A stretch of 64,000 nucleotides of DNA from an uncultured Gammaproteobacteria bacterium (GTDB lineage: Bacteria > Patescibacteriota > Patescibacteriia > UBA9934), in the NCBI GenBank assembly GCA_964569575.1, contig CAZMTL010000001.1, positions 67,503-131,502 of the forward strand, read 5' to 3'. Made by a program: the position numbers and the translations under genes. Below the pieces are notes generated by a model that worked only from the letters and a program-made list of their open reading frames with translations, had not been told where the DNA came from and made no database searches. Shown piece by piece: positions 2-58,825 of the stretch. Every line of letters begins with the position of its first letter. Position 1 is the first letter of the stretch.

Positions 2-910
2 CATCATTCTGCGGAAGAAATTTCGGACGCGTTGATTGCTTGTCGCAAGCAAATTAAAGGTACGTCCGTTCAACTTCTTGCTGATTTGCCCGAGGCTAAA
101 ATTCGTCTAGGGGATTTTTCTGAGGAAGTTCTTGCTCTGCAACAAGATGCGGTTTTTCATTTTCGACACGCAAATACTTCACCAAGCGCGTTCGATTTTG
201 TGCCGGTAAAAGACCTGTTCTTTTTTGAGCGCATTGCGGTCGGTGATCACTTCTATACAGGTGATGGGCAGCTGCAATTTTGCGTTACACAAACTGATGT
301 TGATTCGTTTACGGCTCGTGCATCATGTGCCGGGACGCTCATTCAGCGATCAGCCTTAACTTGCGCTCGCATTAGCGATCAACTCGACCACGTGACCGAT
401 TTCTTGCGCGATCTTGTTGTGCACCTACCAAAGTCAACACCGGATATTGTCGCCTTTTCTTTTGTGCATTCTGGTGAGATGATGCAACAACTGCTCGCTC
501 TCCTAGAGCCTCATCTGACACGAGAATGGAGCCCTGATATTGTTGCTAAAATCGAATCAATGAACGGCGTTGAGCGAATTGATGAAATTCTTCCTTTCGT
601 CGACGGAATCATGATCGCACGTGGCGACCTTGGATTACATGTTCCTATTGCAGACTTGGGAGTTATTCAAAAACGCCTTACGCGAAAAGCGCAGGCGGCA
701 GGAAAATATGTGATTGTCGCAACACAGATGTTGCAAACGATGCTGGAACACAACATTCCGTCGAGATCGGATGTACTCGATGCCACCAACGCGGTGCTCG
801 ATGGTGTAGATGCAATCATGCTGTGCCAAGAAACTTCGCATCACGCAGAACCAGCGAATGTGGTACACATGGCGAAGCGGATTATTCAATCAACTTTCAA
901 CTCGTTTTAA
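2..910 (+). CDS. pyk: pyruvate kinase, 5'-truncated at window edge (reading frame open from position 2; track ORF begins at internal TTG 32)
   Basis: Barrel/active-site motifs of PK: ..IVAKIESMNGVERIDEIL.., DGIMIARGDLG, VATQMLQTMLEH, DVLDATNAVLDGVDAIMLCQETS; no in-frame stop between position 2 and 910. Confidence 0.88.
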   Translation, partial: HHSAEEISDALIACRKQIKGTSVQLLADLPEAKIRLGDFSEEVLALQQDAVFHFRHANTSPSAFDFVPVKDLFFFERIAVGDHFYTGDGQLQFCVTQTDVDSFTARASCAGTLIQRSALTCARISDQLDHVTDFLRDLVVHLPKSTPDIVAFSFVHSGEMMQQLLALLEPHLTREWSPDIVAKIESMNGVERIDEILPFVDGIMIARGDLGLHVPIADLGVIQKRLTRKAQAAGKYVIVATQMLQTMLEHNIPSRSDVLDATNAVLDGVDAIMLCQETSHHAEPANVVHMAKRIIQSTFNSF

Positions 911-30400: not shown

Positions 30401-33400
30401 TTACCAATCCTTCTGTTGCGTCATTTGATGTCGACGTTACCACTACGTTGCCGGATGGCTGAGATGTGAGCACGAGTGAAAATGTTGCTGTTGCCCCGTC
30501 TTCGGTGGTGTTGTTCGAAATATCAGACACGAATACGCTCGATACATCATTGTCGATGTTCGTAATTTCGACATTGTCTGGATCTCCTCCCCCGAACACT
30601 GGATCATCCGACACAACGGTGCCGGTAACAATTTGGTATACAATATCGCCGTCGTCGATGTCATCATTTATTCCTGTAACGGTAATTTCTTGAGGAATAT
30701 TCCAGTTTAGATCGGTAAACACCACTTCCGTTTCTACAATCGTTCCTTCGGTTGTATCCGAGGAACTGATCGCGACTGTTACATCGTCGGTTGGTTGATT
30801 CGTTAACTCCATCGTGAAGGTTGCTGTCGCGCCGTCTTCGGTGGTGTTGTTCGAAATTTCGGAAACGAATACCCCTGGGAATGTCCATCCGTCATTATTG
30901 CCCGAATCAGTACAACCAACTTGGCAGAAAATATCTGTTCCTCGAACATTGGCGTTATCTTTCAAATCTAAATACTCAACCGTTACCGCTCCTTCTGGGT
31001 CGAGTGATGATTGTACGCCGTCGGTGGTTGATCGCACAAATAATTTTTCGTCGGCGATTCCGGTGAAATCAAAATCGTTTTGAATCGTTTGAGTTTGCCC
31101 AGCTTCAAGCGTAATCGTGTCTTCGGTTGTGACGTTTTTTGCAAGATTGTAGAACGTTGTGGAACCGAAAATAGTCTGCGAGGTACCGTTGAATGTCACC
31201 AGTCCGTTCCGTGGAGTGAATGTAGACGCATTTGTCCAGTCCCCCGCAACGGTGATTGGATAGTTCGACGCACTTACGTCCAACTCTCCTTCGAGGATCG
31301 AAAGGTCGCCATTTACGTCGAGCGCTTCGCCAAGCACAAACACATCGCCAGCATCTGCGCTTGCGATTTCAAAATTTGCATACGTATCTAGGAAATTTGT
31401 GATTGTATATGTATCACTACTTGCATCAGCGTCGCCGGTAAACCGTACAGTGCTTCCAGTTTGCAAATCTGGCTGCCCAGAATTAAATGTGCCGACTTCA
31501 TTTCCGTATAATTCGACCACTCCCCCGTCTTCAACCTGAAACGTTCCGTTGGTTCCGTTCACCGTTACATTAAATCCCGACAAATCCAACACACCTTCTT
31601 GCACAAGAAAATCTTGATTGAATCCGTCGAGCACAAGCGCAGACTGAAGCTGGACAGATCCGCCAGTTTTTTGAATGTATAAATCGGTGTTATGCCCCCC
31701 TGTTGCTCCTGTTAAATCGAATGTTTGAACGGCACCGCCGGTAAAACTTAGGACAGCACCAAAGCTAGTGTTGCTTGTGTAACCACTATTGATCGTGACA
31801 TTTCCACGCGCCTCGATTATCCCGTTGTTCACACCAATATCTCCAAGAACTAGTTCTTCATTTACAATAATCGTATCGTTTGAAATAGAAATTGCCGCGG
31901 AACCAAGCGTCTGTCGATCCACGGTAAGATTGGTGAATTCTTGTGTACCGTCGACGTCCCACGTTCCTGCCGATCGGTATGCGATCACATGCTCGGGGGG
32001 TAAAAATGTTCCGTTTGTTGTCACCGTCAAATCTCCCAATAACCATTCGCTCTGCGTTGACGCATCATAAGTTCCACCGACCTGAATCCATTCAAGTACT
32101 CCTGGGATAAAGTCACTAGGGTTATTAAATGGAATGTTTCCAGAAAATCCTGCCGTTGTGCGAAGATTAACCGTTGCAACCGCGTTCAAATTAATGTCGT
32201 CATCGGCATCTGGAGCTGAATCGAGGATAATCACCGGAGTTGTTCCTCCGTTAATTTCATATGTTTGCACGACCGATTCGTTTGTAAAGTAAATATTTGC
32301 AGACCCACCGGTAAACGAAGCTGATTGCGTAATATTTCCTTCCACTAAGACCGTTCCGTCGTTTAGCCCAACATCAACTAGCGCAAGATTACCATTGACC
32401 ACTATTGTGTCTCCCGAAAATGTTGCCGATGCTGCTCCTAGGTTACTTCGATCAATTGTGACGTCATTGAATTCCTGACTTCCATCTACATCCCAAACAC
32501 CTCCGCTGCGCCAAGAAATCGCATGTTGCGGAGCAATAAATGTTCCTGCCGTACTCAGAATAAATCTTCCCAGCAACCACTCTGTTTGAGCTGACGCATC
32601 ATACGTTCCTCCGACCTGCGTCCAGGTTTCGACTGTTACCTGATAATCCCCAGAATTGTTTAACGGAATTGCACCGCTAAATCCGGCCGTCGTTTCGATC
32701 GATACTCCCCCGTCATTTAGCATCAAGATTTCATCCGATGCATCTGCTACTGAATCTAGTACGATAATCGGCGAAAATCCTCCGTTTACTTCGTACAACT
32801 GATCGACGGCATCATTTGCAAAATACATCATTGCGTCGCCTGAATCGTATGTACTTGCTTGCTCGATGTCGCTATACGCATATAGCGAGCCGTCTTGCGC
32901 TGTTCCATTTGTTAGCGTGAGTTGGCCATACACGTGGATGATATCACCAGAACTTATGTTTAAATTTTGAGCATTTCCTTTATTAATCTCGAGATTAAAA
33001 ACATCAATCGAATTCACTACATCAAAACTCGATACCGTATTTCCATCAAACACGATACTTCCGTTATTATGAAAAAAACTTCCACCCGACTGAATAAAGT
33101 TACGAAATACCATGAACGAATCCTGCGTAGACGTAAACGTACCCCCTGTTTGAGTAAAGTTTTGATTGACATCAATCATTGCATTCCCGCCAATAAAACT
33201 TCCGCTCGCGATACTAAAGTTCGATGCCCCAACCGTTACCGATGACCCTGCTCCTTGAGTGATCGTTCCAGAATATCCACTTGCGATTTCGATACCGGCA
33301 ACAGAAATAGAAGCATCGATTGTTGCATCTTTTGTTGACGTTGCGTTGAACAGAGCAATGTCGCCCGTTCCTGGAATTGTGTCACTGCTCCAGTTCGCAG

Positions 33401-33551
33401 CTTCGTTCCAATTGTTAGTCGCTCCTCCCCCGTCCCACGTGTACGTTGCCGCGTAGGTTGGCTTTGGAAGAAACGTAAAAAAGCTACTTAAAAAAGAGCA
33501 TAAAACGACAAAAGTTATCGCTCGAAAAAATGTTGCACGTAGCGATCGCAT
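24483..33551 (-). CDS. giant secreted surface protein/adhesin (3022 aa): signal peptide, beta-helix N-terminal region, about 17-20 tandem ~105-aa Ig/cadherin-like domains, poly-Gly linker, unique C-terminal domain
   Basis: N-terminal MRSLRATFFRAITFVVLCSFLSSFFTFLPKPTYA; Gly/Asn/Thr-rich beta-helix-type repeats; repeated unit ..TVSAISNNTTEAGxTATFTVVLxSEPTGDVVI.S.SxDxTEGVVTxGxxLTFxxxNWxTPQTVTVTGQDDDIxDGD..Y.I..; GGGGGGG at aa about 2700. Confidence 0.9.
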   Translation of the reverse strand: MRSLRATFFRAITFVVLCSFLSSFFTFLPKPTYAATYTWDGGGATNNWNEAANWSSDTIPGTGDIALFNATSTKDATIDASISVAGIEIASGYSGTITQGAGSSVTVGASNFSIASGSFIGGNAMIDVNQNFTQTGGTFTSTQDSFMVFRNFIQSGGSFFHNNGSIVFDGNTVSSFDVVNSIDVFNLEINKGNAQNLNISSGDIIHVYGQLTLTNGTAQDGSLYAYSDIEQASTYDSGDAMMYFANDAVDQLYEVNGGFSPIIVLDSVADASDEILMLNDGGVSIETTAGFSGAIPLNNSGDYQVTVETWTQVGGTYDASAQTEWLLGRFILSTAGTFIAPQHAISWRSGGVWDVDGSQEFNDVTIDRSNLGAASATFSGDTIVVNGNLALVDVGLNDGTVLVEGNITQSASFTGGSANIYFTNESVVQTYEINGGTTPVIILDSAPDADDDINLNAVATVNLRTTAGFSGNIPFNNPSDFIPGVLEWIQVGGTYDASTQSEWLLGDLTVTTNGTFLPPEHVIAYRSAGTWDVDGTQEFTNLTVDRQTLGSAAISISNDTIIVNEELVLGDIGVNNGIIEARGNVTINSGYTSNTSFGAVLSFTGGAVQTFDLTGATGGHNTDLYIQKTGGSVQLQSALVLDGFNQDFLVQEGVLDLSGFNVTVNGTNGTFQVEDGGVVELYGNEVGTFNSGQPDLQTGSTVRFTGDADASSDTYTITNFLDTYANFEIASADAGDVFVLGEALDVNGDLSILEGELDVSASNYPITVAGDWTNASTFTPRNGLVTFNGTSQTIFGSTTFYNLAKNVTTEDTITLEAGQTQTIQNDFDFTGIADEKLFVRSTTDGVQSSLDPEGAVTVEYLDLKDNANVRGTDIFCQVGCTDSGNNDGWTFPGVFVSEISNNTTEDGATATFTMELTNQPTDDVTVAISSSDTTEGTIVETEVVFTDLNWNIPQEITVTGINDDIDDGDIVYQIVTGTVVSDDPVFGGGDPDNVEITNIDNDVSSVFVSDISNNTTEDGATATFSLVLTSQPSGNVVVTSTSNDATEGLVTAGATRTFTTENWNIPQTVTVTGQDDALIDGDVLYDVVVSINQGATVDPLYDATDPDDVTITNIDNDIVDVVVTISGINTQVHENGTTDSYTLVLTMQPTDDVVVDLSYSGEITTDIDPVTFTDLNWNTPQTVTVSAVNDDIDETNEIVVIEHTVTSDDPNYNGIEIDDVSVTVQDNDTRGVTVSAISGNTTEAGGTATFTVVLNSEPEGDVVITSASNDTTEGVVTSGASLTFNSATWDTPQTVTVTGQDDGLGDGNVAYTIVVATDTVATTDNGYDSVNPNDVSVTNEDDGDAPGFSVSLISNNTTEAGGTATFTVELTSEPIGDVVINSVSNDATEGVVTGGGTLTFIPSEWNVPQTVTVTGQDDDIDDGNIAYTIQVSIDDALTDDGDYDVLADQTVNAQNTDNDTRGVTVSAISGDTTEAGGTATFTVVLTTEPVGDVVVLSASNDATEGVVTSGASLLFDSSNWDTPQTVTVTGQDDDIADGDIAYSIVTSMDTAATTDNNYDNANPLDRSLQNIDDGDAVGVNVSAISNNTTEAGATATFTVNLTSQPTDTVVINSVSGDSTEGVVTSGSVLTFETGTWNIAQTITVTGQNDNLDDGDILYSITTTVDAALTEDDNYDAINPDDVAVTNIDNDTAGVSVSAVSGTTTESGGTATISVVLNTEPTGNVVIEAASNDATEGVVTAGATLTFTTENWNTPQFTTVTGQDDDIADGDIEYSIIMTTDQDATNDALYDAINPDDAVVTNIDNDAGGITVSAISNNTTEAGATATFTVVLQSEPVGVVVVNSESDDETEGIVTGGSVLTFNSGNWDTPQTVTVTGQDDFLDDEDVQYVIIVTLDQNDTTDVEYAVIDPDDVTVVNEDDGDTLGVTVSAISNNTTEAGATATFTVVLDSEPEGDVVIDSISNDSTEGLVTSGGTLTFDDQNWTVPQTVTVTGVNDTIDDGNVNYTIEVEVDDLLTTATGYGNVPNQQVEVVNEDDGDAAGFGVSAISNNTTEAGTTATFTVVLESEPTGDVVINSISSDTTEAIIVSGASRVFDASNWSTPQTVTIAGVDDDVDDGNIDYTIDVTINEALTDAIEYIGAIDEQVEGTNEDDDTAGFTLSAISSNTTEAGGVAAFTVVLDSEPTGDVVINSVSGDMSEGVVTTGVMLTFTPADWNDPQTVIVTGQNDDIDDGNVAYVIDVEVDAPDTQDALYDILPAQQVNAQNTDNDTVGFTVSAASGNTTEDGGTATFTIRLNSEPTGDVVIDSVSSNASEGVVTSGSTLTFNAGNWNTPQTVTVTGQDDALADGLVAYTILITTDTVETLDPLYDAIDPSDVALSNVDNDSSSFVTSPISNNTTEAGATATFTIVLTTEPTGDVVINSASDSAEGTVTDGATLTFTSINWDTPQTVTVTGQDDDVDDGDVAYTVTVSVDDATSDDLEYEALPDQQVAVTNEDDDTAGLIVSAISNNTTEAGITATYTVQLQTEPTASVTIENVSNDSSEGVVTSGATLNFDALNWNQPQTVTVTGQNDDIDDGDSAYAIDVSVNAGATLDTVYDVVASEEVSLQNIDNDTAGVTVSAVSGNTTEAGGITTFTVVLDTEPTGDVVINSASDDATEGLVTGGATLTFTPLNWSTPQTVTVTGQDDGTVDGDVVYTIEVVINAGLTSDALYDVIDPNDVTLSNTDNDTPSGGGGGGGDSGPIIVVENVNIDVQVSEPQLCRGEVAQANIYIQAKNAAQVVVSDNAYFVGAQWQAYVIDETVSTAEKQIMIAPIEFVADQEVETFYLRLRTAGGNSTNTLTTSVDVSDILIDCENVEEPQEPVEPTEPVPDACTEEVFAPSPQTGELEQVTCVPDNALLVKGTTYSTVYALENGTRKPFMNQAIYFTWHQDFDDVLVVSDATLPFYRLGDPVLPNPANSLVKIQSDPTVYAPILSQGINYIRAIPNEQTAAILFGQNWSDRVIDLPPTLLQLYKTSAPFTSAGQ
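25450..30950. repeat. tandem array of roughly 315-nt coding repeats inside adhesin gene (source of many plus-strand shadow ORFs)
   Basis: Periodic protein repeats; multiple overlapping plus-strand ORFs with reiterated SPVGS/TVTVCGV peptides. Confidence 0.8.
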
Positions 33552-33883: not shown

Positions 33884-33905
33884 GTCAACGTTTCACGGTT
33901 GACCC
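33884..33905 (-). terminator. terminator after pentapeptide gene A
   Basis: ggtcaacgtttcacggttgacc hairpin followed on minus strand by T-rich tract. Confidence 0.5.
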
Positions 33906-33929
33906 TCGCGGGTGCTGTGGAGTTGTACG

Positions 33930-34343
33930 CTAGCAGTCGAGGCGATCCTCGGCTGCGATGCGACTCAACGCATGCTCGGCGCGCTGATGATTGATGATGA
34001 TCAGCTGCTTGGCGGTCGCAATGGGCGTTCCGAGAGAAGCGCCCCAATTGGCCTTGGCGACTCCACACGCCTTCCGAATGTCCATCCGCTCGACCCAGGC
34101 GCCGCTGAAGTCTGCCCCGGCGATGTTGGCATTGTCCCACTTCGATCCCTGCAGGTGCGCGCCGTTGAACTTCACGAACCTGGCGCGCAAACCCGTACAG
34201 TCCGCCGCGTACATGCGCGCGTCGTGCATCGTCTTGCTCTCATGCTCCACCTTGGGACGCTTGTTGCGATCGGCATTGCGCTTACGCCACTCCTCCAGGG
34301 CTCGCGCGCCGCCGATCTTCCGGATCTTCTTGATCAGACTCAT
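33930..34343 (-). CDS. pentapeptide-repeat protein (137 aa), high-GC islet 3
   Basis: GGAG 7 nt upstream of ATG 34343; consecutive A(D/N)(L/F)xG pentads: GAHLQ/GSKWD/NANIA/GADFS/GAWVE..KANWG. Confidence 0.75.
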   Translation of the reverse strand: MSLIKKIRKIGGARALEEWRKRNADRNKRPKVEHESKTMHDARMYAADCTGLRARFVKFNGAHLQGSKWDNANIAGADFSGAWVERMDIRKACGVAKANWGASLGTPIATAKQLIIINHQRAEHALSRIAAEDRLDC

Positions 34344-34694
34344 GTCAAACTCCTTCTTCGCGCTGTGCGAAGGGCGTAACTTGCCATATTGTGTGAATCG
34401 CGTCAATTCGCGCTGCCTGCAAAAAGAAACACCCCCATTTCTTGCGGAACAGGGGTGTGAGTGCGCTTTTGTGCCGCGCGTAGCGGCGTAGTTAGCGCTT
34501 TCGTTGTCGTACCGTCCTTCTTCGAGCGCGTTGTGCTCGACATCGTGCCAGAATGGCTTCGCGGTCGAGCTTGAGTGAAGTGGGTCCGAACACCAGTTGG
34601 CGTGGGCCCATTCCGCAGGGCGGTGATTCGTCGTGGGACGAAATGACCGGATTCTGCGGTTCGAACTCGGTATCGAGCGGATGGCGGCGCCAGG

Positions 34695-35156
34695 CTACCA
34701 CCACGAATAGCCCGTCATGTCATCAAGCTGATCGTTGAAGATGCGTTCGTCCTTCTTCGGCAGCGCGATGTTGTTCGGGGAAGTCAGTGGAGCGTTCAGC
34801 TCGGGGCGGCGCGAGTTGTCGGCGGCGCCCTTGATGCGTGCGAAGTAGTCGCGCGCGATCACGTCTGCGATCACCGAATCACACAGCGGCACACCCTTGC
34901 AGTTGAACTTCACCGTACACTGACCACCTCGGGAGATCAGTTTCACGCCACGCAAGTCCGCGTCGGTGATGTCGGCCCGCTTGGTGAAGACCACGTTCTC
35001 GAGCGTCAGATCGCCCAAGTTCTTGCCGGTCAGATCTTCGTCAATCTCCACGTTGCGCAGAACACGACGGCCGTCCACCGTCTCCACTCCACGCAGTTCG
35101 TAGATCTCGGTCTCCTGAACCGGAAACTGAAGCACCTTGCCCTCTCGAATGCTCAT
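34695..35156 (-). CDS. pentapeptide-repeat protein (153 aa), high-GC islet 3
   Basis: AGGAGG 4 nt upstream of ATG 35156; EDLTG/KNLGD/LTLEN/VVFTK/RADIT/DADLR/GVKLI pentads. Confidence 0.75.
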   Translation of the reverse strand: MSIREGKVLQFPVQETEIYELRGVETVDGRRVLRNVEIDEDLTGKNLGDLTLENVVFTKRADITDADLRGVKLISRGGQCTVKFNCKGVPLCDSVIADVIARDYFARIKGAADNSRRPELNAPLTSPNNIALPKKDERIFNDQLDDMTGYSWW

Positions 35157-35228
35157 GTACCCTCCTGGTGGGCAGCAAAATCTCACATTTCTGACTCAGC
35201 GTCAAACAAAAGAACGCCCGTAGGCGCT

Positions 35229-36105: not shown

Positions 36106-39100
36106 CTAGTTTACGTATTTACGTTTTTGTTCTTCGATTTTTTCCCTTGATTCACCAATAAAAATGCGGACTCTGTGGAATTTTTCTCCGGCTATTTGTG
36201 CATCACCGAGTTCGACTAATTCGACCACAAGTCCAGATTTAGAGCGCTTTGCAAATTCTTCAACTCGTTTTGCCACTAATTTATAACTTGTTTCTTCTCG
36301 CATTTCGGCATAAATAGGGGGAAATTCTTTTTCTGTGTCTTGATAATGTTCGGCATACTTTTCCACGAACGCATCAATGAGTTGAACGGCGTATTTTCCA
36401 GAGGCGAGACCTTTTGATCGATCGACACCCATGTCGTCTATATACACTTCCGGTAACTCTGGATTTGTGTGATCGACGCGCGCGAGCATGTATCCTTGAG
36501 GGATTTCTTGCTTATTGCGTACCATCAACATCAAATTAGGATCACCGAAATGCTCTTTCGTGAATAGTCCTGCCATGATTCGTTGGTAGCGATCTGCTAG
36601 ACCAAAAATGAGTCCTTTATTTTCTGAAAAGCCCTTGCCTTCCAGAAATGCCATCGAAAGAACATCAGCGGCCGTTACTTCGCTAACGCCCGATCGCTCA
36701 GGTTGCGTGTTTTCGTTTTCTGGATACGTAATTTTATACACTTCGTCTCCTGCGTGATCAATATACGAAACAGGTGACCCTGGAATGTATGTGTTCGCTT
36801 CTTTTTCGAACTTCCAATCTGGTCGACCGGTTTCGTATGTCTCTTTTCCTATCACGAATTTTGTTCGATCAATTGCAAGTTCCTCTGGCAAACTACGCAG
36901 ATACGATCGTCCAAATCTTTCCATGGCTAGTTCGATTAGATTCGCGCGACCTTCATTTAGTTCATTTTTGTTTGGCTCGATATTATCTGCTACCAACACA
37001 AAGCCACTTTGTACATCTTTTTCTTGTAAAATTTCGTGCAGCTGCTTTCTCGATCGTATCTCCTCCATTACTTCTGAAGTTAATCGTTCAAGTTTATGGT
37101 CGATCATAAGCACGGACTGACTCATCGCTAGCCATTTTCCGTCGCTTCCTTTTCGTTCCACAATCAGCTGCGAAATGGCCGGATTCCAGTCATATGCGTT
37201 TGTTTTTCCATCACCAAAAGGCATACAGTTTGCCACTGCTTCGCCCGAAACGCGAATGCTCGGATCGCTTTTTGCTCCAACACGCACGCGGACTTCATTA
37301 GTTTCTAGCGGCCTTACTCCAACCTTTGCCCTGTACAACAATCCATTTGTTCCGTCTCCTAATAATTCCACTAATGCTTCCTTCGACACATTTGGCGCTA
37401 CTCCTTCCTTGATCCATTTTCTCAAAACAGCCGCTGCTCCATTTTCGGTCATCACTTCTCCGTCGTCTGATTCTTTTGCATGTCTTGCAATCCAAGATCG
37501 CACTTCTGTAAATAACTTCTTCACATCTTCTGCTTCGCCAATCATTCCTTCACTTCTCTTTCCAAGCGCACGCGTAATTTCTGTTCCGGCAAATTCTGTT
37601 GTTACTACAAGATCTTCCATTAATTTCCCTTCTTTTGTCATCCGATAATTTTGCTCAAACGGTAGCAACATCTGCATTTTATCGAGCTCGCCATTAAAGA
37701 GAGCGTCTCGAAGCATTTCTTGAGTCAGCCCCGCTCTTTGCACTTCGGCAATTCTTGCCGGTGCGAGCGAATGTGAAAATTCGTTTCCGTAACCCACTTC
37801 TCGATCCAAGAATTCTCCCGGTTCTTTTACAAATTGTCCGATTGCCTCAACGGAAATAACAGGACTTTCCAAGAGTTGCATTGCAAAAGCCTGCAATTCT
37901 GGCTTGGCCTCTCGAAGACCTGCGATCAGTTCTCGACGACCCAGAAAACGATAGAGCTCTTCTGCTAGCTTCAAACCTTTCCAGGAATAAAGTGGGTGAT
38001 ATTTTTCGTCGCTTAATTTTGCTGCTCGAAGTGTAAGCGACTCTATGCCCAACTCTTCGGTCATCACACGTATTTCGTCTAAATTTCTTGGTAGTCCATT
38101 TTGGTGATCATCATCGTCGTTAAGCCACATTCCTTTTAACTCATTACAGATTCTCTTGAATTCCACATAGGAATTCCCCATTTCATAAGCAGACATGTCT
38201 TTGGCGACTTGGCGTAATATCGTTTTTCCAAATCTTTCATGAAATTCTTTTTCAGCTTTTGCGTGAGCCTTGCTATTTCCGCGCGCTTCTACCGGTTTAT
38301 GATTATAAATAAAGCTACTGAGTGCATCATCTTGAAAAAAGTCGTGAAAATTAAAATCTGGACGATTCACGAAAGCAAGCAAATCTTTGGCGCGACATCC
38401 CGCGTTCTTTAATCCTCTCAATGTATCTATCGCTTTCTCATTCGAGTCCTCGTAACTTTCTGCAAATATGTCGAATACTTGATCAAAGTCTTCTTCAGCT
38501 ATCTCTTTTACTTCCTCGTCCTTAAGTAAAAGATCCGGACGTTCGTTTAAAATAGTCTGCGCTAGTTCTGGATTCAAACCCCATGTTACTCGTGCACGTC
38601 GTGCATGATTTGAAATCCTCTCTCCGTATACTGAATATTCTTCACGGATATATTTTGGAATGGATTGATCGTTCATGAATTGAATACGATCCTGAATAGC
38701 ATCCTCTTCCAAAAAGTTTTTTTCTGATATTCCAAATTGCCGTGTTATTTCAGTCAACTTTTTAGCGTCTCCTTCGTACAGTTGATCGACATAATATTTT
38801 TCGAATAATTGATACAATCCGTGAGCTCTAATTTCTGCCTCTGTCATTTCTGCTACTTGTGCCATCGAAAATGCGTGATGATTGTTCCATCCACCTTTCT
38901 CAAAATGATCTGCGATCACATTTACCATGATCGCCATGCGAGCTTCTTTTGATATATTAAATTCATCAAAAGCTCTTAATCCACCGCTGTATAATGTTTT
39001 AGATAAAGCTTTCCTGATCCCCGCTTCAGCTGCAGCTTGCTCGGCTTCCTGCGAAATTTTGAATCCTGTACTAACTTCTCGCGCAAGATCAACTTCTCCA

Positions 39101-40392
39101 CTTGATAACAGAGTTATCATACTTTGTTGCGCAAAAGACTCTTGCATTTCTCGAGATAATTTAAATGCATCCGCAAGATTAGCTGCTTGACCAATCCGGT
39201 TATTCGCCAACAAGATTTGTACCCTTGGCTCTGCAAACGATTGACGAAATTCATCACTAATCCCAAAGGCATCAGCAATTTTCAAACCTTCCGAAACCAA
39301 CCCCTGCTCTACCGAATTGATCATCTCATTTGTTGCGATTTCTTGTAGCTCAGTCGATTCAAGCCTTCCTCGTGGTACTTCAAAATTAGTTATTATTCTT
39401 TCGAGCTCAAAGATCTTTTTTTCTCGTAGTTTCTTGATCAAAAGTAATCTAACTTCATCCTGTACCTCTGGTAGTTGCAGTATTTCTCTCGGTAAATCAA
39501 AAAAATTAATGACCTTTAGTCCATCCTCTGGTTGTCGAGATTTAAATGCTTTCATCGCTGCGAGTCTAGCTTTTTCTTTTGTTTCTGGCTTACTCAACAC
39601 CTCGCTAGCGACAAACCCTAATTCTTCAGAGATGTGAATATATTCAATCAAAATATTTGATCTTACTAATCCTTCACTCAGCCGATCTAATTGTCTCAAT
39701 AATAAATCCTCAACACGTTGACGCACTTCGGTGTCCTGCAACAAAGGCGATTCGATGTTTTTTCCGTTCTTTGAAAATACTGCAATATCCTTCATTGCAA
39801 CCACATCTTCCTCTACCAAAGCACGTTTAAAAATCTCGATCTCTGCGTTTCTTACTTCTTTTGATTCTAATATTTCATCTGATATTTTAAATACTCGTCG
39901 CATTTTAAATACCGCATCCAACCGTCCGTTTTTCAGAAAATCAATCACGATCCCCTTAACCACCCCTGCTTTCAATTCAGCTGATAGCGTTAGCGTTTTA
40001 ACTGCATGCTGATGATCTGATTCGTCATCTTCCCAGCTGGTATTTTTAATATGCTTTTCTACAAGGCGTTTTCGTTGTTCTTCAGAAATTCTTAGCAAGC
40101 CAGCCATTGTTTCGGCCATTTCCACTTGATACTCTTCTAGAAACCAGTAGATCGTATCCTCTATTGCTGTCTGTATCTCTGAACTTTGCATTACTTCGTC
40201 AGAGATACTTGGTACTTTTATTTCTTTTCTAAAAATTACAAAAGGGCCATGCGCCAGACCATCTAGCCATTCAAGAAACTGGTCTCTTTCCGCCTTCATC
40301 TCAGGCGATAATTCCGTCGCCTCGTCATTTTCTTTACTCGTGGCTCGGTTCACGACTTCTTGCGGCGGAGCTGGGCGTTCTCGGTTTTCCAT
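36106..40392 (-). CDS. large cytoplasmic helical-repeat protein (1428 aa), low GC (about 40%), unknown function
   Basis: No TM/signal; recurring roughly 35-aa units containing F(G/K/N)ISxE (AFGISDEFRQSF, AFKLSREMQESF, GFKISQEAEQA, FNISKEARMA, QFGISEKNF); composition distinct from flanking folD/pyrH. Confidence 0.8.
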   Translation of the reverse strand: MENRERPAPPQEVVNRATSKENDEATELSPEMKAERDQFLEWLDGLAHGPFVIFRKEIKVPSISDEVMQSSEIQTAIEDTIYWFLEEYQVEMAETMAGLLRISEEQRKRLVEKHIKNTSWEDDESDHQHAVKTLTLSAELKAGVVKGIVIDFLKNGRLDAVFKMRRVFKISDEILESKEVRNAEIEIFKRALVEEDVVAMKDIAVFSKNGKNIESPLLQDTEVRQRVEDLLLRQLDRLSEGLVRSNILIEYIHISEELGFVASEVLSKPETKEKARLAAMKAFKSRQPEDGLKVINFFDLPREILQLPEVQDEVRLLLIKKLREKKIFELERIITNFEVPRGRLESTELQEIATNEMINSVEQGLVSEGLKIADAFGISDEFRQSFAEPRVQILLANNRIGQAANLADAFKLSREMQESFAQQSMITLLSSGEVDLAREVSTGFKISQEAEQAAAEAGIRKALSKTLYSGGLRAFDEFNISKEARMAIMVNVIADHFEKGGWNNHHAFSMAQVAEMTEAEIRAHGLYQLFEKYYVDQLYEGDAKKLTEITRQFGISEKNFLEEDAIQDRIQFMNDQSIPKYIREEYSVYGERISNHARRARVTWGLNPELAQTILNERPDLLLKDEEVKEIAEEDFDQVFDIFAESYEDSNEKAIDTLRGLKNAGCRAKDLLAFVNRPDFNFHDFFQDDALSSFIYNHKPVEARGNSKAHAKAEKEFHERFGKTILRQVAKDMSAYEMGNSYVEFKRICNELKGMWLNDDDDHQNGLPRNLDEIRVMTEELGIESLTLRAAKLSDEKYHPLYSWKGLKLAEELYRFLGRRELIAGLREAKPELQAFAMQLLESPVISVEAIGQFVKEPGEFLDREVGYGNEFSHSLAPARIAEVQRAGLTQEMLRDALFNGELDKMQMLLPFEQNYRMTKEGKLMEDLVVTTEFAGTEITRALGKRSEGMIGEAEDVKKLFTEVRSWIARHAKESDDGEVMTENGAAAVLRKWIKEGVAPNVSKEALVELLGDGTNGLLYRAKVGVRPLETNEVRVRVGAKSDPSIRVSGEAVANCMPFGDGKTNAYDWNPAISQLIVERKGSDGKWLAMSQSVLMIDHKLERLTSEVMEEIRSRKQLHEILQEKDVQSGFVLVADNIEPNKNELNEGRANLIELAMERFGRSYLRSLPEELAIDRTKFVIGKETYETGRPDWKFEKEANTYIPGSPVSYIDHAGDEVYKITYPENENTQPERSGVSEVTAADVLSMAFLEGKGFSENKGLIFGLADRYQRIMAGLFTKEHFGDPNLMLMVRNKQEIPQGYMLARVDHTNPELPEVYIDDMGVDRSKGLASGKYAVQLIDAFVEKYAEHYQDTEKEFPPIYAEMREETSYKLVAKRVEEFAKRSKSGLVVELVELGDAQIAGEKFHRVRIFIGESREKIEEQKRKYVN

Positions 40393-53003: not shown

Positions 53004-53288
53004 TTATAGCAATGCGTCCTTTGCTGCTTTGTTTACTGTGAACTTTAGTACAGTCTTTGCAGGGATCTGGATTTGTTCTCCAGTTGCTGGGTTTCGGCCC
53101 ATTCGAGCATCGCGCTTCTTCTTAGCCATCTTTCCTAGACCTGGAAGCATGATTTCTCCTGAACGCTTAATTTCTTTGTAAATTAGGTTTACTAGTCCAT
53201 CGTAGTGCTGTTCAGCATCTTTCTTAGAAACTCCCCAACCTTCTGCCAAAGCTGCCATCAGCTGAGACTTTGTTAAACGCTTTTCCAT
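53004..53288 (-). CDS. hup: DNA-binding protein HU (94 aa)
   Basis: HU/IHF fold: LTKSQLMAALAEGWGVSKKDAEQ.., ..RNPATGEQIQIPAKTVLKFTV; start set at MEKRLTK. Confidence 0.88.
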   Translation of the reverse strand: MEKRLTKSQLMAALAEGWGVSKKDAEQHYDGLVNLIYKEIKRSGEIMLPGLGKMAKKKRDARMGRNPATGEQIQIPAKTVLKFTVNKAAKDALL

Positions 53289-53408
53289 AAAACAAATCAA
53301 CAATTAATAATTTATGCGTGTATTTTAGCACCAATGTCCATAATCCTCAATGTATTGTGTATAAATCACATGCACAAGCAGCTTTTTCCTGTCAACGAAT
53401 GCTGTGAA

Positions 53409-56400
53409 TTACAGGAACAATCTGCTCACTGCCGGGTTCGCAAGACTGATACGAAGTCGCCCCTCCCACTGTCTATTTGTCTGCTGAATTAGTCCGTGCA
53501 TCTGTTTTGCTACATAATCTTTTTCTGGCCCTGTAATATTACGATCACGCATATGGTCGTAAATTTCGGCTAATTCCAGCAATTCTCGACCAATCTTTTG
53601 CATTGCTTCCAGCTGACCGCGCTGCGTTTTGCTTATCTCCGTCACTGGTCCTTGAGGGTTCGTGAAGAGTGATCGAATCTTTATTGGTGACGGATCTATT
53701 TCTAACTCATCCTTGTTTAGTCCAACAACTTTTCCTCGTTCATCATATTCGAATATAACGCTTCCCTTGTCTCCACCATAGTCGCCCATAATTTCAAAGC
53801 GCGTGTGCGTGTCATCAAGTTTTACAATTAACTGCTCTATTTGATCTGGTACGATTACGTCTCCGAAGTACTTCTGGAATGTTGGGTCTTCCTGGTTGAA
53901 CACCACCTTTCCAACGTTCTCGAGTCTTAGAACTCGTTCGGAAGTCTCTTCTAGAATTCGTTCGTAAGCGACAGAATCCTTCAAACCAGCTTTTTCTAGT
54001 TGCTCGAGCGCGTAAATATCTGCCGCGAGTAGTTTTGCGGCCTTTTCGTACTGACCTGGTCGAGGCACATTCACGTAGAACATGTCTTTTGCACGCTCGA
54101 TGTCGCTTGCCTTTAGATACGGGATCAATTCAGATTCCTTTAATTTACCGTTACTACCAATAGCTTTAGCGACTTCCGCAGGCATTCCGACCGACTCTGG
54201 GGTTGAAGCTGTTTCCGGTATAGCTAGCGGCCTTACTTCCTGTATCGAACCTTCGTACCGTGTCGCGATATCGGTTTTTAGAGCGTCGATGGTTGCTCGA
54301 ATGCTTGAGCGGTCTACTTCTAGTGCACTGTCGTCCATCTTTTCCAGTGAATTGCTGATGAAATTTTCGAATCGTGTTACCGCATCCTTCTCTCCTAGAT
54401 ATTCCGCGTACGCTTGCAGTCGAACTGCTTCTTGCAGCTTGAACAATTCATCTTCGGCAATCACATTCTTTCCGTCACCCGGTCTTACCTTCAACAACGA
54501 TGTAACCGTTTTGTAATCAGAAGATTGAACCTCGCTACGGTCACTTGCCATTAGTGGATTTACCTCTACTGCATCTCCACTAAATACTACATGCTCTCCC
54601 GCAAGTTGTTCAGTTGCATTTATACGCCCTAAACTGATTTCTTTTCGTGCTTCGATCAAGTCTTTTGCGCCAGCACCACTACTTCCGGATACCGATCTTT
54701 CACCTCCCGCTCCGCCTGTTGATACAGTTTCGGTAACCATTGGGCCCTCTGTTCCTCCTGATCCCGTCCCCCCTTCTCCGCCGCCACCGCCTCCTCCGCC
54801 GCCTGGACTTTCAATTGCCTGTAAATTGTTTAATTTGTCGAATACATTACGTTTCAGTTCTTCACTTATTTTTACGAAATCCGTTCGTGTATTATCTCGT
54901 TCCACAACTGTAAGTCGTCGCGCGTAATCCTCAAGTGCAAATGCATATTCCGGAGTTGCCGTCTGACCGTTTTCTTCCATGTCTTTTAGCACGTGTTCGT
55001 AAATCGCGATCATGTTGCGCACCTTTAGCACATCAGAAGACGATTGACCGGCAGATCTAAAGAGCGAAGCTGCCTCTTGCTTTTCGGTGTTCGAAATATC
55101 GTCCATGACTTTTTTGTAATCGATCGTCGTCTGACCGCTTTTCGTTTCGAAATAGTTGATTGGAGCTTGTTCGGTGACCTCCTCAGGATTCGAGATCGAA
55201 TCGGGTGCCTCTAAAGCTTCGACTATACCCAACTGCGCATTGATCGCTTTTGTGTCAATCATGACCCCATCCTGCTCCGCCGCTTTAATTGCCTCTGCCA
55301 AATGATCAATAAGTAGACTCTTTGTTGATTCTGAAATATCCTGCTGCTTCACAAACTTCAAATCCTGCACTAGACTGCTTATTCTTTCTTCGTGTTTAGC
55401 TACTACGCTCGATTCGACCGCTTCTTTATTTTCTACCGCCATTATTACCGAACTAGCTTCATTCGATGTTGCCGAGACAGGCTCGTTCGCGGGTGCTTCA
55501 GGTACCTGAACCTGCTCTCCAGCGGCACCTATCCGAGTCGCAGCCACCTCTTTAGGCATCCGTGGCTGCGCAGTACTCTGCTCTAAAGCTAAACTCTGCT
55601 CAGTCCCAGAACCAATATCTGCAGCCTCTGTCGCTTCGTCACTCCCGAGAGATGAGATACTTTCTGCCATCGGCTGTACGATCTGTTCATTTCCATAATC
55701 CAACACAGTCCCAGCTGCTTGCAGCGAGACCTCTGACGCGCTTAATACGGCATTTTTTGCTACATCTTGCAATGAATTGTTTGCCATCTCTAATAGAGCA
55801 TCAATCGGCTCTGCTGCCCTTGCTACGCCTGACATAAGCATTCCGCCAACCGCCATTCCTCGAGCGAGTTTTGTCATTGCTTGAGTGGTATTCATTACTT
55901 TACCAAGCTTCGACTGAGCATCGCCACCCTGCAACTGCTTCCACCATTCCGAAAACCCGCCAGAAATATACTCGCTTGCTAACGATCCTTCGCGCGTTCC
56001 GGAAGCTCGTTCAGTCTGAACGGTTTGATACCGCTCTAGTGCCGAGAGTGCCGTAAAAGCAGCCGCTCGCGAAGAGAAGATTACACCCGATCCGACACGA
56101 GCACCTGGTACCGGCAGGACTCCGACTGCTATTCCACTCGCAAACATAAGCGAGTTAAGCGATTCTTTTATTACTCGAATACCCGAAACGCGTGTCTTTA
56201 CATGTTCGTCTAGTAACGCATCTCTTTTTGCTGTATACGCTCTTTCTGTCTTGCTTGTCGAGCTGTCATGCTGTGACTTCACCTCCATTAAACGCCGAAG
56301 CAGATCTTCTTTTTTAGCCTTTGGAATATATTTCGATTCAGAAATAGCTTTTTGCATCGCTTCTGTTCGCTGCTTCACCACATCCACTCCCTCTGCTTCT

Positions 56401-58067
56401 TCGAGCTGTTTCTCGAGTACCTCCTTAAGTCGCTTCACCTCTTCATTTCGATATCCTCTTTGATACAACCAGCGCAGTAGATCAACCGGAGTTTTCAAAC
56501 CTACGTACGATGCTCCTCCAGAAATAAATGCCTTTGTTATTCCGAGCGTTAGACCAGCTGCCGCTCGGGTCATTCCTGCATCATATTTTTTCAAATCATC
56601 ATCTTCTTCCACCAATTCACCTTTGAAATTTTTGCGGAAAAACAAATCGACTGTTTCACTCATGTAGTCCTGAGTTCTTGTAGCCCAGCCCTTCTTCCCT
56701 CCCTCCTTACTCTTATTCGTTTCTTTGGGGTCGCCGACTTCAACGACAGAATCTGCCGCGCCAGCATTAACTGGCTCTTTCCGAACTTCAATTGTCGCGT
56801 CGTCGAATACTAGCGCCTTTCCGGTTGGGTCAAATACATCCGGATTGTCATTTTTTGTCGGTTCGATGTTTTTATCATTTGAAGCATCGATATTTACCGT
56901 ATCTAAGACGACTGAGTCATCTACAAGTTTAGCGGCTGTTTTAATTGCATCCGCTTCGTACTTGTCCTTTATGCTTGCTTTCATTTCTTCCAATCGGCTC
57001 TTTACAGTTCCCTTCGATCCTTCGCGACCAGCTCGTACAATGGCGCGTAGACGATCTGACATCCCTTCTGACCCTTTTAACCTAGCGAAAGCATCGACTA
57101 CTTCGTCTCGCGTTTTTGGCGCCTTTTGCTTTGAGGATATTTTTATCACCCTCGCAGCTCGTTGCAACGCCGTTTCGTCGTTACTCGAATGATCAGGTTC
57201 GCCCTGCTTTTTACCCTCTGCTGCATCGAGTGTGTCTAAATGGTCTACAAGCTGATCGGATATTTTGCGTGTATCATTAGATTCCATTACCTCGGTCGCG
57301 TGATCTTTTCTATCCTCAGTCTCCACCTCTTCATTTTCATCACCGCCCATTTCCTCTAAACGAGCTGACACACGTTCGATCATGGATCGGCGTGTGGTCA
57401 CTGAGTCTTTTATTCGCTTTTCTGCCCTCGGGTCCTGTGCTCTTAATTCTGCTAGCGCTTTTTTATTTTCTGCCCCTTTTCCTTTTAATAATTTTTGAGC
57501 CGTTTTCTGCTCTTCGTTCAAACGATCTAGCAGCGCCCGTACTTCTTTTGCGGTTCCATTTTGCAAAACAGCTTCGTCGCCCTTTGGCTCGAATCCCTTC
57601 GCGTATTCCGATGCTGGTGGTTCAACCGCCTTTACCGGCATTTCCACCGCCGCACTTGCCGTTCTTCGCTTTCTATTAGCTTCGTCGCGTCTACGGAATG
57701 ATTCGTCTACCGCATCCGCTGCGCCTGCTACTTCGTCTGTCGCGACAGGCATGGTTCGAATTCGGTCTTGTTTTCGGCGATCTAAATCTGCTCTGTGAAA
57801 GGCTAACTTAATTTCGTTGAGCTTTTTCATGAGCTTTTCCGCGTCCCGCTTAATACTTGCTCGTTGCGCTGTTGTTTCGACAGAATCTGGGTCGTCGGAA
57901 GCGTCGTTGATTTTTTCGAGCGCGGCTTCAAGATCACGAATGTCTTTATTCATGCCCACATACGCCTTTGCTACATCTGCCTCGCTACCAGTTTCGAGCG
58001 CTTTTTTGTAGACGTCAACATTGTCGTACTGATCAATATTTGGGATTATCTTATGTTCTACGACCAT
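53409..58067 (-). CDS. giant charged coiled-coil-rich protein (1552 aa) with three Gly-rich amphipathic/hydrophobic segments and a G9 linker; unknown function
   Basis: No signal peptide; segments AAAGLTLGITKAFISGGASYVGL, LMFASGIAVGVLPVPGARVGSGVIFSS, LARGMAVGGMLMSGVARAA; GGGGGGGGGEGGTGSGGTEG linker; first of a 3-gene tightly spaced unit. Confidence 0.8.
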   Translation of the reverse strand: MVVEHKIIPNIDQYDNVDVYKKALETGSEADVAKAYVGMNKDIRDLEAALEKINDASDDPDSVETTAQRASIKRDAEKLMKKLNEIKLAFHRADLDRRKQDRIRTMPVATDEVAGAADAVDESFRRRDEANRKRRTASAAVEMPVKAVEPPASEYAKGFEPKGDEAVLQNGTAKEVRALLDRLNEEQKTAQKLLKGKGAENKKALAELRAQDPRAEKRIKDSVTTRRSMIERVSARLEEMGGDENEEVETEDRKDHATEVMESNDTRKISDQLVDHLDTLDAAEGKKQGEPDHSSNDETALQRAARVIKISSKQKAPKTRDEVVDAFARLKGSEGMSDRLRAIVRAGREGSKGTVKSRLEEMKASIKDKYEADAIKTAAKLVDDSVVLDTVNIDASNDKNIEPTKNDNPDVFDPTGKALVFDDATIEVRKEPVNAGAADSVVEVGDPKETNKSKEGGKKGWATRTQDYMSETVDLFFRKNFKGELVEEDDDLKKYDAGMTRAAAGLTLGITKAFISGGASYVGLKTPVDLLRWLYQRGYRNEEVKRLKEVLEKQLEEAEGVDVVKQRTEAMQKAISESKYIPKAKKEDLLRRLMEVKSQHDSSTSKTERAYTAKRDALLDEHVKTRVSGIRVIKESLNSLMFASGIAVGVLPVPGARVGSGVIFSSRAAAFTALSALERYQTVQTERASGTREGSLASEYISGGFSEWWKQLQGGDAQSKLGKVMNTTQAMTKLARGMAVGGMLMSGVARAAEPIDALLEMANNSLQDVAKNAVLSASEVSLQAAGTVLDYGNEQIVQPMAESISSLGSDEATEAADIGSGTEQSLALEQSTAQPRMPKEVAATRIGAAGEQVQVPEAPANEPVSATSNEASSVIMAVENKEAVESSVVAKHEERISSLVQDLKFVKQQDISESTKSLLIDHLAEAIKAAEQDGVMIDTKAINAQLGIVEALEAPDSISNPEEVTEQAPINYFETKSGQTTIDYKKVMDDISNTEKQEAASLFRSAGQSSSDVLKVRNMIAIYEHVLKDMEENGQTATPEYAFALEDYARRLTVVERDNTRTDFVKISEELKRNVFDKLNNLQAIESPGGGGGGGGGEGGTGSGGTEGPMVTETVSTGGAGGERSVSGSSGAGAKDLIEARKEISLGRINATEQLAGEHVVFSGDAVEVNPLMASDRSEVQSSDYKTVTSLLKVRPGDGKNVIAEDELFKLQEAVRLQAYAEYLGEKDAVTRFENFISNSLEKMDDSALEVDRSSIRATIDALKTDIATRYEGSIQEVRPLAIPETASTPESVGMPAEVAKAIGSNGKLKESELIPYLKASDIERAKDMFYVNVPRPGQYEKAAKLLAADIYALEQLEKAGLKDSVAYERILEETSERVLRLENVGKVVFNQEDPTFQKYFGDVIVPDQIEQLIVKLDDTHTRFEIMGDYGGDKGSVIFEYDERGKVVGLNKDELEIDPSPIKIRSLFTNPQGPVTEISKTQRGQLEAMQKIGRELLELAEIYDHMRDRNITGPEKDYVAKQMHGLIQQTNRQWEGRLRISLANPAVSRLFL

Positions 58068-58068
58068 A

Positions 58069-58392
58069 TTATTCTTTTGAAAGTGAGGCTTTTACTGAGG
58101 CAATTTTTTCGGCGTCGTCTATTTCGGTTGCAAGGCGGTCGATGGATTCCGTTGCTTGTTCGTTGAGTTCTTTAGACGATTTTTGGAATTCCTCTTCGAT
58201 TTCTTTTAACCGCTTCTGCATCGATTCTTCCATCGAATTGTCGTCCTTGTCCCAGGCAATCAGTAGCTTTACAAAGTCGTCTTTTGCTTCTTCATTTTTT
58301 TCGCGCGCCAAAAAATCCATGATCAACATCTTTAGCTCGGCTTCTAATTCACTTTCTTTTAAAATTCGTACCACCTCCTGTAAGTTGTTCAT
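58069..58392 (-). CDS. small acidic helical protein (107 aa)
   Basis: Starts 1 nt after giant gene stop; MNN.. start; pI acidic, all-helical composition. Confidence 0.6.
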   Translation of the reverse strand: MNNLQEVVRILKESELEAELKMLIMDFLAREKNEEAKDDFVKLLIAWDKDDNSMEESMQKRLKEIEEEFQKSSKELNEQATESIDRLATEIDDAEKIASVKASLSKE

Positions 58393-58394
58393 AG

Positions 58395-58715
58395 CTAGTT
58401 GATTTCTGCTTCAATTTGATCGAGTGCGTTCAATGTTTTCTCCTGTTGCTCGGTCACGGCTGAATCGTGCTCGACTTGAATGCTTTTGAGCTTTTCGATG
58501 AGTGCGCTCATATCTTCCTTTGACTGATCCGGAATGGTTAAACTTAAGTATTCGGTCAACTGATCGATTTGCGCCAAGGTCATTTCGGGAATCAAGGTTG
58601 CCCAGGCTTCTTTTTGATCTTCTGGAATATTTGCTACTTCCAGTAACATCGCAAGACGAGCACCAATGGCTTCAAAATCTTGCTTCATTGTTTCTTCGTT
58701 GTTTGCGTTGTTCAT
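58395..58715 (-). CDS. small acidic helical protein (106 aa), likely paralog of 58069..58392
   Basis: 2-nt gap from previous gene; also begins MNN; similar size/charge. Confidence 0.6.
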   Translation of the reverse strand: MNNANNEETMKQDFEAIGARLAMLLEVANIPEDQKEAWATLIPEMTLAQIDQLTEYLSLTIPDQSKEDMSALIEKLKSIQVEHDSAVTEQQEKTLNALDQIEAEIN

Positions 58716-58794
58716 ATGATGAAATTATAACATGAACAAGGGCAGAGGGTGTAGGCAGTAGGGGCTAGGGATGGAGGCTCTTTTTTTGGATTTT

Positions 58795-58825
58795 AAAAAT
58801 CCACCGGCTTGGTGGATTTTTTTTG
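58795..58825 (-). terminator. terminator after SOD-like gene (bidirectional)
   Basis: AAAAAT-ccacc-ggctt-ggtgg-ATTTTTTTT. Confidence 0.6.

Follow-up and report, generated by a model that had tools for sequence, protein, structure and literature searches.

The 64,000-nt window analysed here, from contig CAZMTL010000001.1 of a genome placed in the Patescibacteriota lineage UBA9934, contains a cassette of three closely spaced genes, which encode two small acidic proteins (A and B) and a giant protein of 1552 amino acids (aa). All three are on the minus strand, in the order gene A (58395..58715; 106 aa, isoelectric point (pI) 4.09, starting with MNNANN), gene B (58069..58392; 107 aa, pI 4.53, starting with MNNLQE) and the giant gene (53409..58067; pI 5.05), with gaps of 2 nt between A and B and 1 nt between B and the giant gene. 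Judged from sequence and structure-model searches, A, B, the conserved core of the giant protein and its C-terminal repeat module are without described relatives, and the core and the alpha/beta repeat module are delimited here as two new predicted domains. The first-pass annotation of the window had proposed this cassette as a novel unit, and its description of the three open reading frames (ORFs), with the 1- and 2-nt gaps, the acidic small proteins with their shared MNN start, and the three Gly/Ala-rich hydrophobic segments and run of nine glycines (G9) in the giant protein, was confirmed from the sequence. That these ORFs are not a product of chance follows from the recurrence of the arrangement in 22 other loci.

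We examined the genomic surroundings of 10 members of the giant family and of 15 further loci, recovered from GTDB species genomes with a narrow alignment, and ran hidden Markov models (HMMs) of A and B over all ORFs of these loci; the counts given are for the 22 related loci with complete upstream DNA. A homologue of A was located directly upstream of the giant gene in 22/22 loci, and this rule holds in the most distant members as well (L022, L023 and L026, with P0083, P0035 and P0085 among the most distant proteins). The full A-B-giant order was present in 15/22 loci in addition to the window, always with B between A and the giant gene, and the truncated locus L021 likewise shows A followed by B. 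Six distinct loci have A and the giant gene only, and L023 has a 67-aa ORF at the position where B would be. Junctions within the cassette range from a 4-nt ATGA overlap (-4 nt) to +5 nt, which points to translational coupling of A, B and the giant gene. The small ORFs are thus conserved beside the giant gene in relatives, and the three genes stand as the unit that the first-pass annotation took them for.

Both small proteins are helical, and their families are acidic throughout. Protein A has the motif LG.RLA.LL..A.LP.D.K.A...IPEM..EQ.D.L, which is followed by a long C-terminal helix. Neither A nor B had a match in Pfam, NCBIfam or the PDB, and the Pfam search was also empty for 17 A-family and 15 B-family members. 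No A- or B-like domains were found fused within the giant proteins of loci that lack a B gene. The two proteins of the window had been called paralogous on first reading; a pairwise BLASTP comparison did not bear this out (E=23), but profile methods gave weak support, as hhalign of the A family against the B family aligned 82 colinear columns with P=5.8e-4 and 29% probability, a jackhmmer search started from A reached B proteins, and the B profile matched the A-like protein of L023. It is plausible from these profile comparisons that A and B are distant paralogues.

An exhaustive HMMER search with aa 353-1552 of the giant protein against 1.84 billion representative sequences retrieved 82 relatives at E<=1e-3, of which 45 reached E<=1e-10; the 82 proteins range from 215 to 1576 aa in length. 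These can be aligned only across approximately aa 466-785 of the giant protein, and the profile of this region scored each member, with a single copy apiece. This all-helical core of about 300 aa (55713..56672, minus strand) is the sole domain conserved across the whole family, and coincides exactly with the stretch bearing the three Gly/Ala/Ser-rich hydrophobic segments. The core HMM matched the window protein with E=1.1e-90, and the window has the full family signature, consisting of the core profile F.GE ... G.K...D.P....Q ... SK.L ... K...N ... R ... YER and an upstream A-family gene. Invariant or near-invariant core residues are G483, E484, G523, K525, D529, Q536, S578, K634, N638, R667 and R679 (giant protein numbering, which equals the position in alignment A3 plus 460). 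A word-indexed homologue search with the full giant protein, a 30-sequence full-length alignment or the 29-sequence core alignment returned the query alone or nothing, probably as low-complexity words swamp the candidates, and scanning of GTDB genome contigs with the window protein's own peptides gave no match. No description of the giant family was found in our literature search.

The hydrophobic segments are located at approximately aa 502-524, 630-677 and 734-752, the second of which carries a 17-aa insertion in the window protein. Several of the invariant residues of the core alignment, K, D and R included, fall within the hydrophobic stretches, which are only 10-14 residues long and broken by an invariant K, D or R. 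The maximum Kyte-Doolittle (KD) hydropathy over 19 residues is 1.58 for the window protein, compared with a family median of 1.42 (range 0.58-1.99); some members reach only 0.6-1.1, and few exceed 1.6. On these values hydrophobicity is marginal, and the segments appear too polar and insufficiently hydrophobic to be counted on as membrane spans. For the same reason, and because of the invariant K, D and R inside them, the earlier suggestion that they are membrane-insertion or pore-lining helices is doubtful. An AlphaFold2 (AF2) model of the core, built from the 29-sequence alignment, is all-helical with 11 helices, and has a predicted local distance difference test score (pLDDT) of 68 and a predicted template modelling score (pTM) of 0.53. 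Foldseek found nothing significantly similar to this model, the best matches being E=2.1 in the PDB and E=0.28 in BFVD. The window protein has no signal peptide, no enzyme domain by Pfam or NCBIfam and no Walker A motif (G....GK[ST]), for which there was a single chance match among 85 family members.

On either side of the core the family is much more variable. The N-terminal arm of the window protein (aa 1-465; 56673..58067, minus strand) is highly charged with two to three helical-hairpin modules recognisable by eye, and its length across the family varies from 1 to 860 aa. In 7/85 orthologues by jackhmmer, and 5/30 by Pfam, this region contains one to three copies of the FtsK-gamma winged helix-turn-helix (wHTH) domain, always N-terminal to the core; the window protein has no FtsK-gamma (PF09397) domain by Pfam. 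Searches of NCBIfam and PHROGs with 30 giant-family members recognised the FtsK-gamma parts alone. The orthologues with this domain (P0009, P0015, P0028, P0031, P0034, P0038 and P0055) lack an FtsK motor domain; the DNA-binding module is thus used here on its own, which is unusual.

The core is followed in 72/85 members by a middle domain of about 110 aa with the motif GTVxKGDGI..IL.RQ, in place of which the window protein has an acidic, Ala/Ser/Thr/Pro-rich linker (aa 786-960; 55188..55712, minus strand). The middle domain of one relative matched LysM_OapA at 2e-4, but similarity to LysM at the profile level was non-significant (1/17 at E=0.15) and the PDB profile search was empty, and a LysM nature of this domain was rejected on that ground. 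The C-terminal arm (aa 961-1552; 53412..55187, minus strand) consists of repeats of an alpha/beta module, in which a beta-sheet with the motif F.YD..G.V.G precedes a helical hairpin with the motif L..ME.AGL..S.EY..L. The HMM placed copies in the window protein at aa 993-1061, 1339-1384 and 1396-1552, and a fourth at about aa 1185-1250 was recognised by eye. At least 42 family members have the module, in one to three copies each. BLASTP self-comparison of the giant protein showed no internal repeats, and the repeats emerged only via the family-wide jackhmmer search. The last copy (aa 1396-1552) was modelled by AF2 with confidence (pLDDT 84, pTM 0.77) as a small alpha/beta domain, for which Foldseek gave no PDB neighbour (best E=0.23). 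The G9 run (aa 1089-1097; 54777..54803, minus strand) is encoded by mixed GGN codons, and is part of a flexible Gly/Ser/Thr-rich linker between repeat modules; relatives such as P0006 have tracts of the EPEPEPE type.

The cassette is bounded by the sodB terminator upstream and a gene for an HU/IHF-type protein downstream, all on the minus strand. The intrinsic terminator of sodB (58795..58821, minus strand) was read from the sequence as a stem-loop with a T run, its 12-bp stem being listed on the opposite strand, and it is predicted to isolate the cassette from sodB. Direct reading also revealed an extended -10 promoter-like element, TGtTATAAT (58724..58732, minus strand), 8 nt 5′ of the gene A ATG, which was not among the matches of a scan for two-hexamer consensus promoters. 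With so short a distance, the transcript would be a leaderless mRNA or have a very short leader, and the cassette appears to have a nearly leaderless transcription start of its own, from this predicted element. Gene A has an alternative in-frame ATG at codon 10, which was chosen by the gene caller on Logan contig L001. A 1152-bp Logan contig from SRR15237806 was 100% identical across the sodB-A region, and the organism is thus present in an independent assembly of a public run.

The downstream gene (minus strand) corresponds to an ORF at 53004..53303, which in its longest form starts with TTG, and its product matched Bac_DNA_binding (PF00216) with E=1e-25 and 90.2 bits (cut-off 22.4). Translation probably begins at the ATG at 53288 (53004..53288; 94 aa, MEKRLTK...), since the homologues in L002, L004 and L024 are also 94 aa. 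The cassette had been described as downstream of HU in the first-pass annotation, which reverses the direction: HU is located 3′ of the giant gene. The two are separated by a spacer of 120 nt that contains a promoter-like site, TTGAGG-17-TAAAAT with TG (53322..53350, minus strand; a consensus match only), and HU may therefore have a putative promoter of its own. The window is chromosomal in content, with genes for SecA, FolD, PyrH, XseA, QueA, MetK, SodB, MsrA, TspO and a resistance-nodulation-division (RND) pump, and no RNA family was matched in an Rfam scan of the window.

The named source genomes of the loci are all Candidatus Uhrbacteria or Patescibacteria metagenome-assembled genomes (MAGs). 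MAG records titled 'uncultured Gammaproteobacteria' (L009-L021, for example L011, L015, L017, L018, L020 and L021) have the same Uhrbacteria-type synteny and the cassette, and these titles are probably a placeholder or erroneous taxonomy. The cassette occupies a single fixed position in most genomes, and the main synteny there, which recurs in over 10 genomes, has the order SecE-NusG-L11-L1-dCTP deaminase ... dCMP deaminase (opposite strand), then A-B-giant, then dihydrofolate reductase (DHFR) and ThyA (opposite strand)-Tmk-two unknown genes-GatB. The flanks of the main clade form a compact thymidylate and deoxynucleoside triphosphate (dNTP) set, comprising dCTP deaminase, dCMP deaminase, DHFR, ThyA, dUTPase and Tmk (L006 13449..13856, minus strand; L006 15936..17559; L025 14103..15791), and the two conserved unknown genes after tmk are paralogous, one of them with a weak DUF7847 match. 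The clade of the window (the window, L002, L004 and L024) has the order A-(B)-giant-HU-LCP-ATP-cone/Mrr, and linkage of HU to the giant gene is limited to these four independent loci. A ParB gene is located nearby in L022, and in L026, from the most distant family member, a HEPN/nucleotidyltransferase (MNT) toxin-antitoxin-like pair (51..745) lies directly upstream of A-giant. Phage, plasmid and secretion-system genes were absent from the loci examined, and no FtsK/SpoIIIE ATPase was present in the recorded Pfam annotations of the loci fetched for family members, the other loci having been compared by sequence clustering only. Vertical inheritance at a fixed locus makes a basic cellular function in these ultra-small cells probable for the cassette, and a mobile accessory trait unlikely.

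Searches of Pfam, NCBIfam, PHROGs, PADLOC, PDB sequence profiles, and PDB and BFVD structures by Foldseek gave no match for A, B, the core or the C-terminal repeat module, and the first-pass view of an undescribed unit was upheld, as no homology to SMC/MukB, tape-measure proteins or any other curated family was found. An SMC/MukB-type condensin was rejected for lack of an ATPase motif and of any SMC_N or MukB match in Pfam or NCBIfam. In its small-small-giant gene order and long helices the cassette is like SMC/MukBEF, MksBEF and Wadjet, and it may likewise be connected with DNA, given HU next to it and FtsK-gamma fusions in orthologues. It has no Walker A/B heads, however, and kleisin and KITE subunits are much larger than A and B. 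A defence system was also rejected, as PADLOC gave only noise-level coiled-coil matches, for B, and a plasmid origin was rejected as there was no tblastn match in plasmid records. Likeness to chaperone-tape-measure modules, MukFEB and type VII secretion system (T7SS) Lap-LXG loci is limited to gene order and protein size.

In style, the giant protein also recalls polar hub and landmark proteins and the cytoskeletal proteins of mycoplasmas. HubP/FimV proteins, of the former kind, are large, very acidic and modular, with repeats and flexible linkers, and combine one anchoring element with recruiting arms; the giant protein resembles them as a large acidic modular protein with repeats and linkers. 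However, three features of HubP/FimV proteins were not detected in the giant protein: a bona fide LysM domain at the N-terminus, an unmistakable transmembrane helix, and the conserved motif of the FimV C-terminus. Nor are HubP/FimV proteins known to have small obligate partner genes. HMW1, HMW2 and P200 are giant cytoplasmic structural proteins of the mycoplasma terminal organelle, in which acidic linkers rich in proline accompany coiled-coil or helical stretches. The giant protein would share with these a structural role, and has acidic Pro-rich linkers and occurs in a genome-reduced bacterium as they do, but homology was not detected (EAGR boxes were outside the searches), and the organism of the window is walled, with LCP and peptidoglycan-related genes.

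Our tentative reading, possible rather than probable, is that the cassette is a lineage-specific operon of the Candidatus Uhrbacteria type, encoding a cytoplasmic multi-subunit complex that acts as an architectural hub or tether and is possibly nucleoid-related. Either A, or an A-B heterodimer formed via the long C-terminal helices, would bind the conserved core at a fixed stoichiometry; binding to the core is suggested because both the small proteins and the core are conserved elements, produced in fixed order and proportion. A and B could be part of the final assembly, or could shield the small-residue-rich, moderately hydrophobic helices of the core, which itself would oligomerise or sit peripherally on the membrane. 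Recruitment of other components would fall to the variable arms, with helical hairpins at the N-terminus (in some orthologues FtsK-gamma domains stand in for these or are added to them) and alpha/beta repeats at the C-terminus. Such a complex would organise the contents of the cell, possibly linking nucleoid to envelope, and would be neither an enzyme nor a toxin. A cytoplasmic hub is favoured by the absence of export signals, the acidity of the proteins, the only marginally hydrophobic core segments, the FtsK-gamma fusions of orthologues, the HU and ParB neighbours and the housekeeping locus; the FtsK-gamma domains N-terminal to the core in 7/85 orthologues point to the cytoplasm. The first-pass annotation had offered an effector with its chaperone or a large structural system as alternatives, and the latter is the more likely half.

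Several observations weigh against such a hub. The giant protein of the window has no FtsK-gamma domain itself, wHTH fusions occur in only about 8% of members, and interaction, localisation and DNA binding are all inferred. Adjacency to HU is confined to a single clade, in which HU seemingly has its own promoter, and the nucleotide-metabolism neighbours may be mere synteny. Invariant polar residues within small-residue-rich helices would be unusual for a passive scaffold and would also fit a channel or translocon-like function, and strongly variable arms are likewise a common trait of episymbiont proteins that are on the surface or interact with a host. Confidence in the core model is only moderate (pLDDT 68).

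One alternative is that the giant protein is an exported, membrane-inserting effector or translocon, which A and B as chaperones would keep competent for secretion, with the Gly/Ala-rich helices forming a conduit in the own or the host membrane and the arms binding the host. Patescibacteria are widely inferred to be episymbionts, which has been counted in favour of this alternative, as have the great variability of both arms, the three conserved small-residue-rich hydrophobic helices with their invariant polar residues, and the small acidic helical partners encoded directly upstream and translationally coupled, like chaperone-substrate pairs. The T7SS LXG toxins with Lap/WXG100-like partners and the type III secretion system (T3SS) translocators with chaperones similarly have acidic helical proteins of about 100 aa, sometimes as paralogous pairs, upstream of a large partner. 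We nevertheless consider export unlikely. There was no Pfam match to WXG100 or LXG in A, B, the giant protein, 17 A-family or 15 B-family members; unlike the T7SS and T3SS systems, the cassette loci with Pfam annotation have no LXG/WXG100 match, secretion ATPase or other secretion genes, and the giant protein has no C-terminal toxin domain. Lack of a signal peptide, hydrophobic segments below the usual transmembrane thresholds in most members, DNA-binding FtsK-gamma domains in some orthologues and a single stable housekeeping locus all argue against it. Foldseek with the moderate-confidence core model (pLDDT 68) did not match it to structures of the ClyA/Hbl or colicin type or to T3SS translocators. 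The first-pass idea of an effector with secretion chaperones or immunity partners gained no positive evidence, and there are no secretion genes nearby. A membrane-anchored envelope or division protein would cross the membrane with one to three real spans in the core and tether cytoplasmic components to the wall; its N-terminus would be cytoplasmic, and its C-terminal repeats, like the LysM-like middle domain of relatives, external. The conservation of the hydrophobic segments, which exceeds that of any other part of the giant protein, fits such an anchor, as do the few members above KD 1.6, the LysM-like 'GTV.KGDGI..IL' start of the middle domain with its one match to LysM_OapA, and the LCP wall-teichoic ligase gene that neighbours the giant gene in the clade of the window. 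The shortness of the stretches and their interruption by invariant charged residues, the several members without any stretch above KD 1.1, the non-significant LysM profile similarity and the lack of the middle domain in the window protein make this distinctly unlikely.

Still more improbable is a lineage-specific machine of a new kind, for cell organisation or as an interface with the host, in which the core, capped by an A/B heterodimer, would be a membrane-embedded or membrane-apposed conduit or anchor, with arms that bind DNA (by FtsK-gamma, in some species) and thymidylate/dNTP-salvage genes as neighbours, and which would serve nucleoid anchoring, or acquisition of DNA or nucleotides in the absence of de novo nucleotide synthesis. 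A domesticated phage tail module, with A and B as gpG/gpGT-like tail-assembly chaperones and the giant protein as tape-measure protein, would fit the layout, in which two small acidic helical proteins come directly before a giant helical one whose central part has Gly-rich hydrophobic segments; in tail modules and here alike, the long protein is presumed to be bound by its small partners. Tape-measure proteins also featured among the non-significant BFVD matches (E=2.7-8.6). We regard it as highly improbable, as all tests that were run contradict it. Phage tape-measure proteins and tail chaperones were rejected as relatives because the window proteins and 30 family members had no tape-measure or chaperone match in PHROGs or Pfam, and tblastn found no match in 50,697 phage records. 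Unlike gpG/gpGT, B has its own ATG 2 nt past the stop codon of A, with an ATGA overlap or a 1-5 nt gap in relatives, and there is no slippery heptamer visible at the A/B junction and no programmed -1 frameshift. The neighbours are sodB, HU and nucleotide-metabolism genes instead of other phage genes, the chromosomal site is fixed across genomes, and there is no sequence or fold similarity to tail modules.

Other parts of the window also encode unusually large proteins. A 3022-aa protein (24483..33551, minus strand) has an N-terminal signal-like hydrophobic segment, about 20 tandem repeats of about 100 aa ('VSAISNNTTEAGGTATFTV.L.SEP.GDVV ... PQTVTVTG.DD') that are Calx-beta-like by eye, and a run of seven glycines (G7) near aa 2728; it had no Pfam match at 1e-3, and is probably a surface adhesin. 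A second cytoplasmic giant protein (36106..40392, minus strand; 1428 aa) also had no Pfam match, and its N-terminal half is helical-repeat-like by eye. The 1552-aa protein showed no similarity to either of these two ORFs. A GC-rich patch at 33900..35200 (0.555, versus approximately 0.47) includes two small minus-strand ORFs (33930..34406 and 34695..35186) that are pentapeptide-repeat-like by eye, and had no Rfam match.

The Patescibacteria (Candidate Phyla Radiation) account for a substantial part of bacterial diversity, with a cell biology that is almost unknown and a proteome of which much is unannotated. If the complex encoded by the cassette turns out to be trivial scaffolding, the value of the finding would be mainly a gain in annotation for a few hundred genomes. 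The cassette does define a testable unit, with a universally co-encoded partner A, a probable duplicate B and a giant protein with one conserved 300-aa core, and so offers structural biology and cryo-electron tomography groups a concrete complex to express and to locate in the cell.

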